A DNA stretch of 64,000 bases from Alphaproteobacteria bacterium (GTDB lineage: Bacteria > Pseudomonadota > Alphaproteobacteria > RF32 > CAG-239), in assembly GCA_045578445.1 (NCBI GenBank), contig JAZNKG010000049.1, positions 1,652 to 65,651 of the forward strand, read 5' to 3'. Below, piece by piece: positions 51,827 to 56,733 of this stretch (the first letter of the stretch is position 1; every line of letters starts with the position of its first letter). A program made the translations under genes and the position numbers. The notes under the pieces were generated by a model. It did no database searches, was not told the origin of the DNA, and worked only from the letters and a program-made list of their open reading frames with translations.

Positions 51827-51855
51827 TTGCTAAAAATAGTTTTTTGGGGTATACT
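51827..51855 (+). promoter_or_regulatory. sigma70-like promoter of paralog 1
   Basis: TTGCTA, 17 nt spacer, TATACT; identical copy at 52645-52673. Confidence 0.45.
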
Positions 51856-51909
51856 GAGTGTTATAGTGTAGTAAATACTACAAAAGATAGTATTTTAAAG
51901 GAGGTTGAC

Positions 51910-52539
51910 ATGGTTGAAGATGCTAATAAAAAAATAGATGAAGCAAAAGAAAGAATTAGAAAAAAACAAGAAAGACGCGCTGCTGTTAAACTTGCAGGAG
52001 TTGTAACGGGTATTATGGCTACTATCGCAACCGTATCCGCTCCCAAGACAATACTTAAAAATGAATTAAAAGATACTAAAAATGAAGTAGCAGAATTAAT
52101 TGAGCAAAGCAAACAAGAAACAACACATGAAACAGCCATTTTTAAATGCAAATCAAAAAATACAGTGAATTTATTAAAAGAAAACGGATATTCATTAAAT
52201 TTAGCACCAGATTTTAACTCTCAAGATTATTTAAACTTTAAATGTGACATTGTTGATTCAAATAATAACACCGTTGGACTCGCTAATGTTATTTCAGAGG
52301 ATGAGTTACTTATTTATAATTTAACTGTTTTAAAAGATTCATCTTTAATGGACCTAATTTCATCACAACCAGAAAATGATTTTCAAAAACAACGTGAAGG
52401 TACAATATCCTTTATACAAGGCGAGCGAATAACTCAAGCCTTTTATCGTCACGATCATATAGAAAATCTACAAAGAAAAGAAAAACATCTTAAAGAAACA
52501 ATAACTGGAGTAAGAGAAGTATATTTGGGAACTGATTAA
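51910..52539 (+). CDS. mosaic paralog 1: single-pass membrane protein (209 aa)
   Basis: Start at the ATG 5 nt after AAAGGAGG; charged N-terminus, TM helix AAVKLAGVVTGIMATIATVSAP; the ends are near-identical to paralog 2. Confidence 0.65.
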   Translation: MVEDANKKIDEAKERIRKKQERRAAVKLAGVVTGIMATIATVSAPKTILKNELKDTKNEVAELIEQSKQETTHETAIFKCKSKNTVNLLKENGYSLNLAPDFNSQDYLNFKCDIVDSNNNTVGLANVISEDELLIYNLTVLKDSSLMDLISSQPENDFQKQREGTISFIQGERITQAFYRHDHIENLQRKEKHLKETITGVREVYLGTD

Positions 52540-52562
52540 AGTTATCTCATAAATAATACAAT

Positions 52563-52595
52563 AAACCCCACTATTTGATAGTGGGGTTTTGTTGT
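52563..52595 (+). terminator. Rho-independent terminator of paralog 1
   Basis: ccccactat ttg atagtgggg followed by ttttgttg. Confidence 0.65.
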
Positions 52596-52644
52596 ATAAA
52601 GAAAAAGCAGTCCTTAATCAGACTGCTTTTTTACATATTTTTTC

Positions 52645-52673
52645 TTGCTAAAAATAGTTTTTTGGGGTATACT
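52645..52673 (+). promoter_or_regulatory. sigma70-like promoter of paralog 2
   Basis: TTGCTA, 17 nt spacer, TATACT; duplicate of 51827-51855. Confidence 0.45.
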
Positions 52674-52727
52674 AAATATTGTAGTGTAGTAAATACTACG
52701 AAAGATAGTATTTTAAAGGAGATTGAC

Positions 52728-53351
52728 ATGGTTGAAGATGCTAATAAAAAAATAGATGAAGCAAAAGAAAGAATTAGAAAAAAACAAGAAAGACGCGCTG
52801 CTGTTAAACTTGCAGGGGTTGTAACGGGTATTATGGCTACTATCGCAACCATATCCGCTCCCAAGACAATACTTAAAAATGAATTAAACGATACCAGAGA
52901 AGAAACAACAGAATTACTTGATTTAAAAGCAAAAGAAACTCAGCACCAAACAGTACATTATGAATGTTTATGCAATAATGCTAAAGAAATTTTAGAACAT
53001 AATGGTTACTCTTTTGCTGTTCCAGAAAACACAAAAGAAGGCGTCTATAAATATGATATTCTTGATAAAAACAATGAAACAGTAGGAATAGTCAATGCCC
53101 TACATTTCGGAGAAAAACCCATTTTTACTGATTTAACTGTTTTAAAAGATTCTTCACTAATGGACCTATTAGAAAAGCAATCTGAAAACGATTTCAAAAA
53201 ACAACGTGAAGGTACAATATCATTTATACAAGGCGAACGAATAACTCAAGCTTTTAATCGACATGATCGCATAGAAAATCTACAAAGAAAAGAAAAACAT
53301 CTTAAAGAAACAATAACTGGAGTAAGAGAAATAAATATGGGAACTGATTAA
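52728..53351 (+). CDS. mosaic paralog 2: single-pass membrane protein (207 aa)
   Basis: Same RBS/ATG context as paralog 1; aa 1-53 and 136-207 are near-identical to paralog 1 and aa 54-135 are divergent. Confidence 0.65.
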   Translation: MVEDANKKIDEAKERIRKKQERRAAVKLAGVVTGIMATIATISAPKTILKNELNDTREETTELLDLKAKETQHQTVHYECLCNNAKEILEHNGYSFAVPENTKEGVYKYDILDKNNETVGIVNALHFGEKPIFTDLTVLKDSSLMDLLEKQSENDFKKQREGTISFIQGERITQAFNRHDRIENLQRKEKHLKETITGVREINMGTD

Positions 53352-53360
53352 AGTTATCTC

Positions 53361-53407
53361 ATAAAAACCTCCACCACAAGGATGAAGGTTTCTATTTTAT
53401 TGGTGAT
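53361..53407. repeat. 47-bp perfect direct repeat, copy A (tRNA-Glu 3-prime tail plus its terminator hairpin)
   Basis: ataaaaacctccaccacaaggatgaaggtttctattttattggtgat is identical to 56618-56664; the hairpin also serves as a convergent terminator for paralog 2 and the GNAT gene. Confidence 0.9.
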
Positions 53408-53421
53408 ACTTAACTCACAAT

Positions 53422-53877
53422 TTACGAGTTGATTTTTCTTTTTAGTACATAATGAGGATAATATATACCAGATGTATCATATTCTTCTTTAGAAAACACC
53501 TCAAAGCCAAATTTCTTGTATAAATGCAAAGCCACTTCATTTGTTGGTTTTACACCAATAGTCATTTCTTCTGAGTAAGTATCCAGCACATATTTTATCA
53601 ATTTACTACCAATACCCTTATTCATATACTCAGGCAACACATATAACATCTTTATAAGTTTCTTTTCTGCCCAATAACTTACATATGCAACAATTTTACC
53701 ATCTTGCTCAAAAACATATGTATCATATGTAGGATAAGAAAAAGATATTAGATTTTTATATAAAGATGACCAATCATCATCTGATAAATCATCTGTTGTT
53801 CGCAAAGACTTATCAAAAACATTAATTAAATCCGGCCAATCTTTAATCTCTGCCTTTCTAATCGTATAACTATTCAT
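53422..53877 (-). CDS. GNAT family N-acetyltransferase
   Basis: YVLPEYMNKGIGSKLIKYV motif A. The last three codons (AAC TCG TAA) lie inside the repeat arm ACTCGTAAATTGTGAGTTAAGT. Confidence 0.8.
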   Translation of the reverse strand: MNSYTIRKAEIKDWPDLINVFDKSLRTTDDLSDDDWSSLYKNLISFSYPTYDTYVFEQDGKIVAYVSYWAEKKLIKMLYVLPEYMNKGIGSKLIKYVLDTYSEEMTIGVKPTNEVALHLYKKFGFEVFSKEEYDTSGIYYPHYVLKRKINS

Positions 53878-53950
53878 AAGTAACTCCTTATAATATATTA
53901 TATTCTGATAATAAGATTTAAGATATTTACATTTTATTAAAAGTATAAAT

Positions 53951-54010
53951 AAAAAGCAGGCTTTTGACTGCCTGCCGCTTGCAATGGTAATCCCAACTCG
54001 ATTGACCTCA
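53951..54010 (-). pseudogene. tRNA-Glu 3-prime-half-like fragment followed by a terminator hairpin
   Basis: tggtaatcccaactcgattgacctca (53985-54010) matches the tRNA-Glu 3-prime end at about 21 of 26 aligned positions. The adjacent gcaggc...gcctgc hairpin block (53951-53991) matches 55233-55273 at 34 of 41 positions. Confidence 0.5.
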
Positions 54011-54074
54011 TTTCATTCGGTCGCACGGGCGCTCGTTCGCTTCGCTCACCGGCGTTCTTCCACTCGCCTCTCGC

Positions 54075-54100
54075 TTGTAGTCGAACTCTCTTTACAAGTT
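54075..54100. repeat. 26-nt repeat ttgtagtcgaactctctttacRagtt (copy 1)
   Basis: 25 of 26 positions identical to 56567-56592; contains a TTCGA T-loop-like core. Confidence 0.7.
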
Positions 54101-54127
54101 CAAATCTCTCAGACTATTCTACAAAAT

Positions 54128-54191
54128 AAAAAAGACACCTATTGGTGCCTTTTTTACTTTATTGGTGATGCTTAACTCACATTTTACGAGT
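54128..54191 (-). repeat. terminator hairpin plus ATCACCA core plus arm (att-like junction)
   Basis: agacacc tatt ggtgcct hairpin, then ttattggtgatgcttaactcacattttacgagt, which matches 53397-53429 at 31 of 33 positions. Confidence 0.6.
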
Positions 54192-54219
54192 ATTGTTTCA
54201 AATATTTGTTTGATTGTCG

Positions 54220-55029
54220 CTATCTTTCGTTTGATGGTACAATAACAGGTGTTTTAGTATTTATCATTTTCAATGTTTCTGCCGGTGACAACCATATTTG
54301 AGGTGAGGAAATTTTTGATTTAGAAGCAGATGTTTCATTCTTTTTTTCCCAATATTCTTTTTTCCTAATTTCAAGATGAATACGAGCTTGCTCTTCTTTG
54401 GTTAATGGTTTTTCAAAATCTCTTACTCTTTTACGTGATTCAGGATTTTTTTTACGTTCTTCCTCAAAAGCCTTTTCAGCTTTATTTCTTCTTACTGCTC
54501 GTTCTTCTTTTTCAAAGCGTTTTTGCCTTTGCTCTTCTTTTGATAGTGGTAAAGATTGCCCTTCTCTTCTTAGGCTTATCCTCAAATCTTTCTGAGCAGA
54601 TTGTCTTACATGAGGTATCAAATTTTCAGGAACATTTGTTCTTACAAAAGAATAATGTTCTTTATTAGGATATACAAAACCATGTTCCTTATCGGTAGTA
54701 ATGATATTATGTGGTGGATCGTCATCAATGACTTTTCCTGTTACTAATGTGTAAAATTCTTCAGAATAAGCATCCGCTCTAAAATAAGATTTATTTATTA
54801 AATGAAATTTTTCAGTATCAATTCCAACTTGTTTCAACAAACTTATAGAAGGAAATGATGAATATATATAAATATTTTCTCCATTTTGCTGAGCTTCTAA
54901 CATTGCCTCATAGAGAACCTCATTTAACTCACCTTTATTATTAATAAGAGTTCCCTGAACATCGACTAGATGTCCATCTAACACCTTTATAGGCATACTT
55001 TCATCCTCTATATTTTGATAACTATTCAT
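54220..55029 (-). CDS. hypothetical protein: degenerate HAD-like N-terminal domain plus Lys/Glu/Arg-rich tail (269 aa)
   Basis: LVDVQGTL resembles HAD motif I with the second Asp replaced; VIDDDP may be motif IV; C-terminal 110 aa are highly charged. Confidence 0.55.
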   Translation of the reverse strand: MNSYQNIEDESMPIKVLDGHLVDVQGTLINNKGELNEVLYEAMLEAQQNGENIYIYSSFPSISLLKQVGIDTEKFHLINKSYFRADAYSEEFYTLVTGKVIDDDPPHNIITTDKEHGFVYPNKEHYSFVRTNVPENLIPHVRQSAQKDLRISLRREGQSLPLSKEEQRQKRFEKEERAVRRNKAEKAFEEERKKNPESRKRVRDFEKPLTKEEQARIHLEIRKKEYWEKKNETSASKSKISSPQIWLSPAETLKMINTKTPVIVPSNER

Positions 55030-55199
55030 ATAAACTCCTTAAAAAGCAACTACAAAGCAATATATCACAAAATAAGGGATAAAGCAATACAAAAATCACA
55101 TCGTTAGACAAAACTATATAATAAGTTATTGAAAAATAAAGATAGTTGATGTATTACGTTCGTGAAAATTACAAAAACAGCTATTTTTGAAAAACAAAC

Positions 55200-55273
55200 A
55201 TTCGAACTCGCTGAAAGGCTTGGAAACAAAAGAAAAAGCAGGCATTTCTCTGCCTGCTGTTTGCATTGGTGAT
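55200..55273 (-). repeat. tRNA-Glu-derived fragments (T-loop 11-mer, hairpin, ATCACCA core)
   Basis: attcgaactcg (55200-55210) equals tRNA positions 56674-56684. aaaaagcaggca...tgcctgctgtttgcattggtgat (55233-55273) is paralogous to 53951-53991. Confidence 0.5.
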
Positions 55274-55301
55274 GCGATACTATCATTTTGATTGCCAAAA
55301 T

Positions 55302-56411
55302 CTATTTTTCATCCATACCTCCTGCTAATTTTTTTAATACAGGATTATCTTTTAATGTTTTATGTATATCAGAATCATCTCGTGTTGTGAATACTAATGA
55401 ACTACCCTTTTTAGTATCTATACCAGCTTCCGATAATCTCTGACCTTCAATATTTTTTTTCATTTCAGCCAATTTCATAGAAACATCTATAGTTTTTCTT
55501 AGTTGACTAAAACTCATATAATTTACATCTACACCTTTTTCAATCGGAACTGTTATACCCAATTCTTGTAAAGCCATTTTTTTTCTAGCTCTACCACATG
55601 AAAGTTCATGATCTAAATATTCCAATTCTTGCTCTGAAAACTGTTTAATTTTTTCTATGGCTTTATCTAGTTGTTCCTTATACTTTTTTAATACATCTTC
55701 ATCTGTTCCTAATCTTATAACATCCTCAAAATCAATTTTGTATCTACGAGACAATTCTCCACATTGATTCGCATATTCTTTTCTTGTATCTTCCTGTATC
55801 TCACAAACATTATAAAAGCCTAATTGTGGAGAAATTTCTCTCTTTGTATAAACAATATATCCTTTACCTTGTTCATCACGAACAGGATAACAAGTTCCTT
55901 TTTTGCGACGAAACTGTTCCCCATTAAATTCAAAACGACCAACTTGCTTAAGAACTTGCCTTGTTACTTTTTCATCTGCTATAATATGATCTTTAATCCA
56001 ACAGTCTTCTTCGTACTTTTCTCCACCTTTTTCCCCATATAGAAAGTAGTATTTTACCTCTTCATTACAATCAGGTAAATATTGTTCAAATAGATCACTT
56101 AGAATCTGTAATGGTGGGGCACTTAAAGTTCTTGGATGTGTAATTTCTACAGCATCTCTTTGACCTAAATGAAAATGTCCACCAACACCTGTAAACTCCG
56201 ATGATCGCCAAAACATTGGCTTATATTTTTCAGCAATATCAGGATGTTTTTGTAAAAACTCATCTTTAATCTTATAAGTATAATCACACCATTCAGTCCA
56301 TGCTGAATATGAATGTGACGAATTTGCCGGTATACTGTTATCATAATTACCACTTGTTACTTCAATAGCATCACGTAACTCTAATGCTAACAAAATATCA
56401 TCTTCCTTCAT
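55302..56411 (-). CDS. hypothetical protein (369 aa)
   Basis: Intact ORF with a GGGAGAAAAGAG RBS region; no motif recognised. Confidence 0.6.
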   Translation of the reverse strand: MKEDDILLALELRDAIEVTSGNYDNSIPANSSHSYSAWTEWCDYTYKIKDEFLQKHPDIAEKYKPMFWRSSEFTGVGGHFHLGQRDAVEITHPRTLSAPPLQILSDLFEQYLPDCNEEVKYYFLYGEKGGEKYEEDCWIKDHIIADEKVTRQVLKQVGRFEFNGEQFRRKKGTCYPVRDEQGKGYIVYTKREISPQLGFYNVCEIQEDTRKEYANQCGELSRRYKIDFEDVIRLGTDEDVLKKYKEQLDKAIEKIKQFSEQELEYLDHELSCGRARKKMALQELGITVPIEKGVDVNYMSFSQLRKTIDVSMKLAEMKKNIEGQRLSEAGIDTKKGSSLVFTTRDDSDIHKTLKDNPVLKKLAGGMDEK

Positions 56412-56466
56412 CTCTTTTCTCCCTATTTAAATTCTACATCAATAAAGAATCGCATTCTTTACTTCT

Positions 56467-56493
56467 ATTTTACCCCCCCCGATTTTTTGTCAA
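56467..56493 (-). promoter_or_regulatory. promoter-like element with a G8 (plus-strand C8) tract in the spacer
   Basis: The minus strand reads TTGACA (56493-56488), AAAAATC GGGGGGGG, TAAAAT (56472-56467); the spacer is 15 nt in this assembly. Confidence 0.4.
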
Positions 56494-56566
56494 GTTTTTT
56501 CCAAAAATTTTTTTAATTTATATTAAGCTAACTCGCTCTGCTAACTGGCGCCCTCATTACATCTGT

Positions 56567-56592
56567 TTGTAGTCGAACTCTCTTTACGAGTT
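56567..56592. repeat. 26-nt repeat ttgtagtcgaactctctttacRagtt (copy 2)
   Basis: 25 of 26 positions identical to 54075-54100. Confidence 0.7.
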
Positions 56593-56617
56593 CTAACCTC
56601 ATCTGAATACAGATAAA

Positions 56618-56664
56618 ATAAAAACCTCCACCACAAGGATGAAGGTTTCTATTTTATTGGTGAT
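56618..56664. repeat. 47-bp perfect direct repeat, copy B (overlaps the last 7 nt of tRNA-Glu)
   Basis: Identical to 53361-53407; 56658-56664 is the complement of ATCACCA, the tRNA 3-prime end. Confidence 0.9.
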
Positions 56665-56733
56665 CCCAACGAGATTCGAACTCGTGTTGCAGCCTTGAGA
56701 GGGCCACGTCCTAGGCCTCTAGACGATGGGACC
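56658..56733 (-). tRNA. tRNA-Glu (anticodon CUC), CCA encoded
   Basis: The minus strand GGTCCCATCGTCTAGAGGCCTAGGACGTGGCCCTCTCAAGGCTGCAACACGAGTTCGAATCTCGTTGGGATCACCA folds as a cloverleaf. The D-arm GTCTAGAGGCCTAGGAC is typical of tRNA-Glu, the anticodon loop is CTCTCAA and the T-loop is TTCGAAT. Confidence 0.93.

Follow-up and report, generated by a model that had tools for sequence, protein, structure and literature searches.

A tRNA-Glu-anchored array of probably mobile single-gene cassettes in uncultured gut Alphaproteobacteria

How do single-gene modules come to be stacked behind one tRNA gene with no recombinase detected beside them? The question is raised by a tRNA-Glu(CUC) gene (56658–56733, minus strand; ARAGORN; Rfam tRNA, 52.4 bits) in a 64,000-nt stretch of alphaproteobacterial DNA (contig JAZNKG010000049.1), which we call the window. 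Downstream of this tRNA, three co-oriented genes are separated by terminators and by copies of its last seven nucleotides, ATCACCA (the core), and the whole is bracketed by a 47-bp repeat that is 100% identical in its two copies (53361–53407 and 56618–56664). Searches of the window with tblastn (two serine recombinases and a XerD as queries) and with motif regular expressions detected no recombinase; these were limited tests, in which not every open reading frame (ORF) was scanned. The original prediction, made from the letters of the window, had recognized the array, the perfect repeat and the missing recombinase, and had proposed, as possible explanations, small islets mobilized in trans that integrated serially and decayed, or another mechanism shuffling single-gene cassettes at a tRNA tail. 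The observation is confirmed and the interpretation is partly supported. Mobilization in trans is the right frame, because one of the cassettes recurs, exactly transposed, at the tail of a different tRNA; decay is unnecessary, both cassette ends being conserved modules that look functional. We conclude with high confidence that the cassettes are portable, site-specifically mobile units whose boundaries lie in the core. We also consider it probable that a site-specific system of gene cassettes uses the 3′ end of tRNA-Glu for its primary attachment, in a full model that includes a large serine recombinase (LSR).

The locus is read here on the minus strand throughout, downstream from tRNA-Glu(CUC), and L-numbers denote fetched comparison loci. 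The cassette of the second gene, which encodes a 269-aa protein (54220–55029), extends from 55277 to 54159. A protein 97% identical to this one led us to L316, where a cassette 96.4% identical over 1119 nt corresponds to the same interval, core to core. In L316 it is inserted behind tRNA-Lys(UUU), where a copy of the tail ends in ..CTCGCTCACCA, and its right flank is the terminator native to that tRNA-Lys(UUU). On both sides, the aligned homology begins and ends inside TCACCAAT. The same cassette is the last unit ahead of the aminotransferase gene in L318. A second case is provided by L011, which differs from L012 by precisely one additional cassette, placed directly between the tRNA and the cassette that follows, i.e. 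an occupied and an empty site; this difference breaks at the core, and the terminator moves with the downstream cassette. The third gene of the window encodes a GNAT acetyltransferase, and its cassette, including the arm described below, recurs in L109 (91%), L114, L140, L151 and L158, with protein identities of 84–91% in the first four of these; tRNA-Glu is followed by this cassette before any other in L114 and L140. In L315, a 52% homologue of the 369-aa product of the first gene is encoded in a cassette behind an arm and core, and an LSR gene lies 5.7 kb upstream of it.

Strains of the same species were found through look-ups of the 369-aa protein, as an exact match and a member of its 99% cluster, and their flanks are 95–99% identical to those of the window. 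Searches for proteins identical to the GNAT and the 269-aa protein of the window returned nothing, and near-identical cluster members were used for them. In L308, L309 and L311 the order is tRNA, 369-aa gene, GNAT, a GC-rich element (see below), one copy of a gene that is duplicated in the window, and the aminotransferase gene. L306 carries extra cassettes at the tRNA-proximal site, which is empty in the window, and the arms at their ends belong to a second family (..GTTCGAGATTTATCGCATTGGTT|TCACCA|). Upstream of the GC-rich element, the slot is filled by the GNAT in L306 and L308–L312, and by the 269-aa gene in the window and L318; strains L306 and L308–L312 lack the 269-aa cassette. The GNAT stands upstream of the GC-rich element in L306 and L308 and downstream in the window, behind the element's copy of the tRNA tail. 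Since strains differ by whole cassettes and one cassette is relocated exactly at its cores in another genome, the modules are discrete mobile units and not generic repeats. A comparison of relatives for empty sites and alternative cassettes had been proposed with the original prediction, and L011/L012, L306, L308–L312, L316 and L318 do differ by cassettes. We rejected a one-step derivation of the window from L308 because their distal flanks differ: the window has terminator I and a second paralogue, and L308 has terminator II′ and another terminator.

The content also varies between species. With the AcrB-like pump gene beside the tRNA as bait, 80 loci were collected from metagenome-assembled genomes (MAGs) of low-GC gut and rumen Alphaproteobacteria. 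In the ~20 closest species, whose pumps are 78–91% identical, tRNA-Glu is conserved and the downstream content is not, and no homologues of the three window genes or of the distal flank were found. The contigs of L004, L007, L008, L013, L014, L018 and L021 end 80–650 bp past tRNA-Glu, which is consistent with strain heterogeneity or repeats breaking the assemblies.

Each cassette ends in a conserved arm of ~27 nt (..CTCGTAAAyyGTGAGTTAAGC) followed by the core ATCACCA(AT), which matches the tRNA tail. Across many MAG species of gut Alphaproteobacteria the architecture consists of tRNA-Glu and then one to five units, each ending in arm|ATCACCA| with a terminator after it. Successive sites are a median of 1105 bp apart (interquartile range 875–1483 bp), three units of 11–13 kb being the exceptions. 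Terminators form part of the cassette boundaries. A terminator-like hairpin lies ahead of every cassette, and a leader of ~130 nt, found with an nhmmer model, is conserved in many of them. The original prediction had seen part of this leader as an 11-nt T-loop fragment near 55200; the fragment is there, and it belongs to the leader.

In 1.4 Mb of pump loci and the window, a profile of arm plus core gave strong matches solely downstream of tRNA-Glu. The exact arm–core pattern, scanned against 185,579 species genomes, was present in 83 stretches, nearly all from the same clade of gut Alphaproteobacteria. Within 3.3 Mb of fetched DNA, arm and core were located solely downstream of tRNA-Glu or of tail copies. 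Here 69 of the 146 arm copies have a co-oriented tRNA-Glu (CUC or UUC) upstream in view, and the other 77 have none within the limited stretch fetched; none of the 146 is mis-oriented relative to tRNA-Glu, and none of the 158 other tRNAs fetched is associated with an arm. No arm–core match was found in viral contigs. As the arm–core is tied to tRNA-Glu in one orientation, an origin as a generic dispersed REP-like (repetitive extragenic palindromic) or terminator repeat is removed for it. We rejected that candidate, which the original prediction had paired with an invariant locus as the outcome that would speak against it; the copies are linked to tRNA-Glu or tail copies, and the locus is hypervariable between species and strains. 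Other cassettes at these tRNA-Glu sites terminate in arms of a second family (..AAGTTCGARATTYATYGCG...T|ATCACCA or TCACCA; L306:1800–1830, L098 and L082).

In the window, the sites can be followed from the tRNA outwards, all on the minus strand. The first core, J0, is the tRNA's own end (56664→56658). Terminator I, an A-rich palindromic hairpin, lies directly 3′ of the tRNA (56618–56657) and forms with this core the proximal copy of the 47-bp repeat. It is followed by a truncated copy, comprising the 5′ part, of the GC-rich element (56617→56528; nhmmer; 34-nt repeat). J0 has a native-type right flank and looks like an unoccupied site. The 369-aa gene (55302–56411), preceded by a promoter-like TTGACA – 15 nt – TAAAAT (56467–56493, identified in the sequence), is followed by junction J1 (55267–55300), where a degenerate arm (..AAAATGATAGTATCGC) adjoins the core (55273→55267). 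Terminator II (stem 55258→55237; terminator scan) and leader A, of ~130 nt (nhmmer leader model, 124.6 bits), together span 55127–55266 and head the 269-aa cassette. This cassette closes at J2 (54163–54191) with the conserved arm ACTCGTAAAATGTGAGTTAAGC and the core (54169→54163; nhmmer, 35.5 bits). Beyond J2 are terminator III, another A-rich palindromic hairpin of native type (54123–54160), and the full copy of the GC-rich structured element (54125→53976; nhmmer, 142–145 bits). The latter ends in J2b, a degenerate tRNA-Glu tail (..GAGTTGGG|ATTACCA; core′ 53991→53985) that forms a secondary tRNA-type site. Terminator II′ (53947–53976), 82% identical to terminator II, heads the cassette of the 151-aa GNAT (53422–53877; Pfam Acetyltransf_1, E = 7e-16), and J3 (53401–53429) closes it with the arm ACTCGTAAATTGTGAGTTAAGT and the core (53407→53401; nhmmer, 37.0 bits). 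A distal copy of terminator I (53361–53400) completes the 47-bp repeat at the distal edge of the array.

These assignments bear out the further ATCACCA cores of the original prediction, at 55267–55273 and 54163–54169, and its shared arm: the 22-nt arm ACTCGTAAAWTGTGAGTTAAGY occurs twice (53408–53429 and 54170–54191), where shuffled sequence predicts zero. The exact 11-mer ATCACCAATAA occurs three times at zero mismatches in the 64 kb, always at the tRNA-Glu locus; a fourth core (ATCACCAATGC) lies at 55267–55273 and the variant ATTACCA at 53985–53991. The predicted terminator order, I-II-III-II-I, is also correct, although it had been read as nested. It does not stand for nested integration and reflects two classes of right flank plus the secondary tail copy from the GC-rich element. 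The flank type of terminator I also follows tRNA-Glu in L020, L015, L018 and L019. The sequence of terminator II and leader A stands directly after tRNA-Glu in L001, L004, L045 and others, and that of terminator III, with the GC-rich element, does so in L018 and L019. The sequences to the right of J1 and J2 therefore adjoin tRNA-Glu elsewhere, and the window genes sit between tRNA-abutting sequences. Among 119 arm junctions, the right half is the native A-rich palindromic terminator, often with the GC-rich element, in 63 and terminator II with leader in 56. Left halves likewise are of two kinds, tRNA-type (a real tail or a copy) and arm-type.

The regularity of these ends bears on an explanation in which the modules are decayed remnants of multi-kb tyrosine-integrase islands, serially integrated at the tRNA and then trimmed by deletion. 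Tandem accretion and decay are common at tRNA genes (10.1101/2020.12.28.424599; PMC4383910), and the clade contains one classical integrase island, at tRNA-Lys(CTT) in L242. However, both cassette ends are conserved modules, unlike random deletion edges, the sizes cluster around 1.1 kb, and the arm junctions repeat just 7 nt of the tRNA. In addition, the same cassette has identical boundaries at different sites, and the arm loci yielded neither a tyrosine integrase nor a piece of one. This explanation is largely refuted, and we regard it as highly improbable.

The arm itself can be drawn as a hairpin with six pairs and a loop of 7 nt, which stands 12 nt ahead of the junction, and the original prediction took it for a mimic of the tRNA T arm. 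The hairpin can indeed be drawn, but the mimicry is not borne out by covariation: among 115 distinct arms none was found beyond column composition, the paired fraction being 0.913 vs 0.912 after shuffling. Foldability, through G–T pairs, is confined to the tRNA-sense strand (0.91 paired vs 0.65 for the complement). Such a fold could be read by a trans-acting enzyme of another class, either HUH/Y1 (as in IS200/IS605 or REP-RAYT) or a tyrosine recombinase that takes the arm as a single-stranded hairpin, as for attC, with the cassettes as its passengers. The drawable hairpin, its restriction to the sense strand and the insertion always 3′ of a fixed short sequence agree with an enzyme of this kind, and the GTTAAGC of the arm fits the integron core consensus GTTRRRY. 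We nevertheless consider it very unlikely, given a hairpin that lacks covariation and is far shorter than an attC site, and because none of the arrays was seen to have a gene of this kind nearby, in contrast to the recurrent LSR gene.

The same fold could alternatively act in RNA. The arm and ACCA would then be primarily a tRNA-like 3′ end for the processing or stability of cassette mRNA, and mobility would come from another source. The arm is indeed placed like a T arm with acceptor strand and ACCA, directly ahead of a terminator, and folds specifically in the sense strand. Yet the acceptor strand has no partner, T-loop sequence and covariation are missing, the homology breakpoints fall at the core, and 25 of the 87 cassettes have their cargo on the other strand with the arm orientation kept. 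There is little to recommend an RNA signal as the primary role, and we give it only a slim chance.

If a dedicated enzyme moves the cassettes, the arm loci offer one candidate. Clustering of all their ORFs yielded a single recurrent mobile-element protein, an LSR of ~530 aa with Resolvase, Recombinase and Zn_ribbon_recom domains. In nearly all loci with close homologues, its gene precedes an arm by 0.9–5 kb and shares its strand. L167, L170 and L173 read tRNA-Glu(UUC)|core and leader, ~7 kb, LSR, cargo, arm|core, and are single units of 11–13 kb with no internal sites. The LSR elements carry restriction-modification and defence-type genes, and no replication genes were detected in them. A catalytic-motif scan of 1.1 Mb of arm loci returned 30 serine-recombinase matches and no tyrosine-recombinase signal; across 3.3 Mb of related loci, one weak tyrosine-recombinase match was found, unrelated to the arrays. 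In L177, an LSR homologue of 64% identity is paired with an arm whose core, CCCACCA, matches the tail copy of a different tRNA. One MAG contains both an LSR element (L164) and an array with no LSR (L011/L104), and in the sibling strains of the window the genes within ±8 kb of the array are housekeeping genes. A PDB sequence search with the LSR gave only a weak match to a resolvase domain, which places it far from any solved recombinase structure. Because the LSR recurs near arms, in elements with the same ends, it is the best candidate for the enzyme acting in trans on the small cassettes and, judging from gene content and position, most likely the catalyst.

Two further observations concern the genes around these recombinases. 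In L164, L165, L171, L173, L174 and L176, a small serine recombinase of ~200 aa (Resolvase and HTH_7), a usual companion of the large one, is encoded on the same strand about 1–2.2 kb upstream of the LSR. LSR homologues at 32–48% identity (L183–L188) extend exactly up to convergent genes for tRNA-Pro, Met, Gly, Thr or Arg, which suggests a wider LSR lineage targeting tRNA tails.

In the model that we favour, a cassette consists of a terminator (often terminator II with the ~130-nt leader), one gene or occasionally two, the ~27-nt arm and the core ATCACCA(AT). A crossover within the shared TCACCAAT, between a tRNA-type and an arm-type site, would insert or excise a circle; the tRNA-type site could be either the real tRNA tail or the tail copy provided by a GC-rich element. 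Arrays would grow through repeated insertion beside the tRNA, and further shuffling would come from homologous recombination among the repeated modules of terminator and leader. The LSR would be encoded on the autonomous family members of 11–13 kb, with the 1-kb cassettes of the window as non-autonomous passengers served in trans. We infer the circles and the exact crossover dinucleotide as parts of this model.

The junctions of the window can be read in terms of a serine integrase, which we offer as a reading and not as a result. J0 would be target-like, J1 donor-like with a degenerate arm, and J2, J2b and J3 hybrid. The GNAT would then lie between a junction of tail copy and cassette flank and one of arm and native flank, fitting an integrated element. 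Sequence conservation extends ~27 nt to the left of the core, which is the size of a serine-integrase half-site. This assignment of J0–J3 is kept as a reading because core-centred dyad symmetry was not found.

Several results weigh against the model. No dyad centred on the core stands out, the best scoring 0.37 at ±16 nt, and the strongest dyads belong to the hairpins of terminator and arm. Hybrid sites are not recombined by canonical serine integrases unless a directionality factor is present, so that tandem accretion needs junctions of tRNA and cassette flank that still act as targets. No LSR was found in the window or in the MAGs closest to it, by a search that catches close homologues in MAGs that are incomplete. 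Between the window and L308, moreover, the terminators remain with the upstream site and homology breaks beyond the T-run of the terminator, and both the 47-bp repeat of the window and the ~49-bp repeats of L306 take in whole terminators. The position of these breakpoints and the extent of these repeats point, for at least some events, to either homologous recombination or a longer identity requirement.

The same observations would suit a process with no dedicated recombinase at all, in which RecA-type homologous recombination acts among terminator, leader and tRNA-tail modules after transformation or transduction. The perfect 47-bp repeat, the ~49-bp repeats of L306, the leader common to many cassettes and breakpoints that fall after a terminator and not at the core are what it would predict. 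We find it unlikely as the sole process. The 269-aa cassette of L316 shares with the tRNA-Lys-tail target just TCACCAAT(AA) per side, a length insufficient for RecA; the ~27-nt arm shows strong conservation and a strict orientation, and homologous recombination needs neither property; and the L011/L012 difference breaks at the core.

The secondary landing site of the window belongs to the GC-rich element, which is a subject in its own right. The degenerate tRNA half of the original prediction is present (53985–54003, 84% identical to the tRNA 3′ end), although it is not a tRNA-Glu-specific scar. The 26-nt repeat at 54075 and 56567 exists too, with the length corrected to 34 nt at 91% identity. 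Both are parts of the full (54125→53976) and truncated (56617→56528) copies of this element. Its core pattern was retrieved from at least 117 stretches; among the matches listed, all but one, in a bin labelled Acutalibacteraceae, belong to this clade, genomes carry several elements, often in tandem, and for 104 of 133 copies a co-oriented tRNA stands no more than 700 nt upstream. The tRNA end typically lies 67–83 nt ahead of the conserved motif, or one repeat unit further in tandem arrays. The tRNAs concerned are Ser, Pro, Lys, Gly, Arg, Met, Val, Asn, Glu, Gln, Thr and Ala.

A unit of the element begins after the tRNA with a palindromic terminator that continues into a degenerate antisense copy of the tRNA tail and a short loop. 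The sense 5′ T-stem strand and TTCGA follow, then C and a conserved core of ~90 nt. The T-loop end, 3′ T-stem strand, acceptor strand and CCA of the same tRNA, with a terminator copy, close the unit. Among 103 distinct copies, one helix of the core covaries (GC/CG 89:10, GC/AU 74:27) and is 97–100% paired. A variable hairpin keeps its pairing across many sequences, with a mean of −6.0 vs −1.6 kcal/mol after shuffling, and a single copy of the element folds at z = −4.6. MAFFT with RNAalifold on 14 copies gave only two helices because the variable hairpins align poorly, and motif-anchored counting worked better. Rfam 15 gave no credible match over 53976–54125 at E ≤ 10, the tRNA alone reaching the threshold in the window. 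Readings as a tmRNA, a hammerhead or another ribozyme were dropped, the acceptor pairing being impossible and the core motifs not conserved.

The tail copy of the element serves as a secondary landing site for the GNAT in the window, and for the 269-aa cassette at a type-2 element in L316. Type-2 elements (L082:2648–2807, L165 and L316:7590–7750) have the same outer layout, with an antisense/sense T-arm hairpin and a tRNA tail copy, around another core. The integrase island of L242 (678–6600) is of the classical kind, with a 446-aa tyrosine integrase at tRNA-Lys(CTT) and a displaced tRNA fragment followed by a terminator and a GC-rich element. As this displaced fragment still carries the element, the latter belongs to the native surroundings of tRNAs on their downstream side. 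It may represent an RNA gene, or else a miniature element that inserts in the T loop.

Cargo differs in every species. The 87 cassettes encode 52 protein families, and in 25 of them the longest ORF runs opposite, the arm orientation being unchanged. The Pfam families include GNATs, P-loop kinases, zeta-toxin-like proteins, chloramphenicol acetyltransferase (CAT), hexapeptide transferase, methyltransferases, nitroreductase, NUDIX, SDR, the metallo-beta-lactamase fold and NADAR. A few cargo genes are PADLOC defence candidates. The 369-aa and 269-aa proteins of the window matched no Pfam family and are very rare, with five protein clusters each among 5.8 billion.

The system combines site-specific accretion, an integron-like layout and a logic like that of the staphylococcal cassette chromosome (SCC). 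Integrons are the textbook case of single-gene stockpiling and shuffling, achieved with one family of tyrosine recombinases and folded attC sites. With integrons and with clusters of attC sites lacking integron-integrases (CALINs), the arrays studied here share mostly single-gene cassettes, sites in one orientation, insertion beside a primary site, very diverse cargo (GNAT, CAT, hexapeptide acetyltransferase, methyltransferase) and the frequent lack of a nearby recombinase. Unlike attI beside intI, the primary site here is a tRNA tail, and no IntI-type tyrosine recombinase was detected in the window or in the related loci searched. The cassette site is a sequence-conserved arm of ~27 nt with a 7-nt core, whereas attC is a structured palindrome of 57–141 bp. 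Each cassette has its own terminator and leader, in contrast to promoterless cassettes served by a common Pc promoter.

In SCC at rlmH/orfX of staphylococci, the enzymes are the large serine recombinases CcrAB or CcrC, and pseudo-SCC elements without ccr are presumably moved in trans. The likeness extends to an LSR, here as the candidate enzyme, the 3′ end of a conserved gene as target, tandem modules, short direct repeats and modules with no recombinase. However, the target here is a tRNA gene, the passengers are single-gene units of ~1 kb with a conserved arm and leader, the LSR is distant from solved structures, and the host is an uncultured clade of gut Alphaproteobacteria. An LSR gene inside a site-bounded element is found in L167, L170 and L173 and not in the window, and homology breakpoints fall within a short shared core at TCACCAAT, although the breaks that separate some strains come past the terminator instead.

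Gene modules without a recombinase, flanked by sites for an enzyme encoded elsewhere, are also known as cis-mobilizable elements (CIMEs), in the accretion of integrative and conjugative elements of streptococci, and as pdif modules of Acinetobacter plasmids. This likeness is limited to recombinase-less modules between recombination sites; CIMEs and pdif modules use tyrosine integrases or XerCD, have other sites, and lack a tRNA-tail anchor with long single-gene arrays. In the tycheposons of Prochlorococcus, a minority of which use large serine recombinases (10.1101/2020.12.28.424599), successive integrations at one tRNA likewise push older elements outward and leave partial tRNA copies between units. 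Tycheposons, however, are multi-kb elements with their own integrase, usually with replication or packaging genes and with true partial tRNAs as repeats, whereas most units here lack a recombinase and repeat 7 nt of the tRNA with a non-tRNA arm. Islander defines a tRNA-targeting island by a tyrosine integrase, a regenerated tRNA and a displaced tRNA fragment at the ends (PMC4383910). Classical islands of this kind differ in that no tyrosine integrase was detected here, the arm junctions repeat 7 nt of the tRNA, and the longer tail copies belong to the GC-rich element. Literature searches found no description of this cassette system or of the GC-rich element.

On a broader and more tentative view, to which we give somewhat less than even credence, these arrays may be a serine-recombinase analogue of the integron in uncultured gut Alphaproteobacteria. 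The tRNA-Glu tail would correspond to attI and the 27-nt arm with ATCACCA to attC, and ~1-kb cassettes of terminator, leader and gene would be captured, reordered and exchanged between strains and tRNA tails. Joined with these would be the GC-rich element, as a new class of structured RNA or miniature element that combines each tRNA's 3′ third with a covarying ~90-nt core in the T loop and so makes extra landing sites. If true, the logic of the integron has been built independently from a tRNA tail, a short site of double-stranded type and probably a serine recombinase. The lineage concerned is abundant in the gut yet uncultured, and part of the cargo (acetyltransferase, CAT, hexapeptide-transferase and kinase families) is of the antibiotic-modifying kind. 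The system would provide gut microbiomes with a hidden path for gene flow, and would account for MAG assemblies of the clade breaking just past tRNA-Glu. Serine integrases are independent of host factors, and the compact site and its enzyme would form a pair for genome engineering. The GC-rich element poses a separate problem, being highly repeated, structurally constrained and matched to each local tRNA.

Some minor observations remain. In leader A (55127–55236) and its homologues, a T-arm-like GCGAGTTCGAATG has an inverted partner, CGAACTCG, ~40 nt on, and a CCTTTCA motif resembles the anticodon loop of tRNA-Glu(UUC); these features may be a promoter or operator, or a relic. The promoter-like sequence of the 369-aa gene contains a homopolymer between TTGACA (56488–56493) and TAAAAT (56467–56472), at 56473–56480, which is C8 on the plus strand and G8 in the sense of the gene. 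This tract is G8 in the window, G7 in L306, G9 in L307 and interrupted in L308, and with such variation between strains it looks like a phase-variable promoter. A 49% homologue of the 369-aa protein is encoded between tRNA-His and tRNA-Gln in L314 (5268–8345), with no arm–core nearby; this spot may be another tRNA-linked variable site.

The variable distal flank of the window consists of two convergent paralogous genes of 231 and 258 aa (ORF call; 51844–52539 and 52575–53351, plus strand). Terminator remnants lie at 52540–52630, and a coreless hairpin resembling terminator II separates the two paralogues. The array-proximal paralogue is ~77% identical in nucleotides to the single copy of the sibling strains. 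As the window has two copies, the siblings one and L318 none, the variable region reaches the aminotransferase gene.

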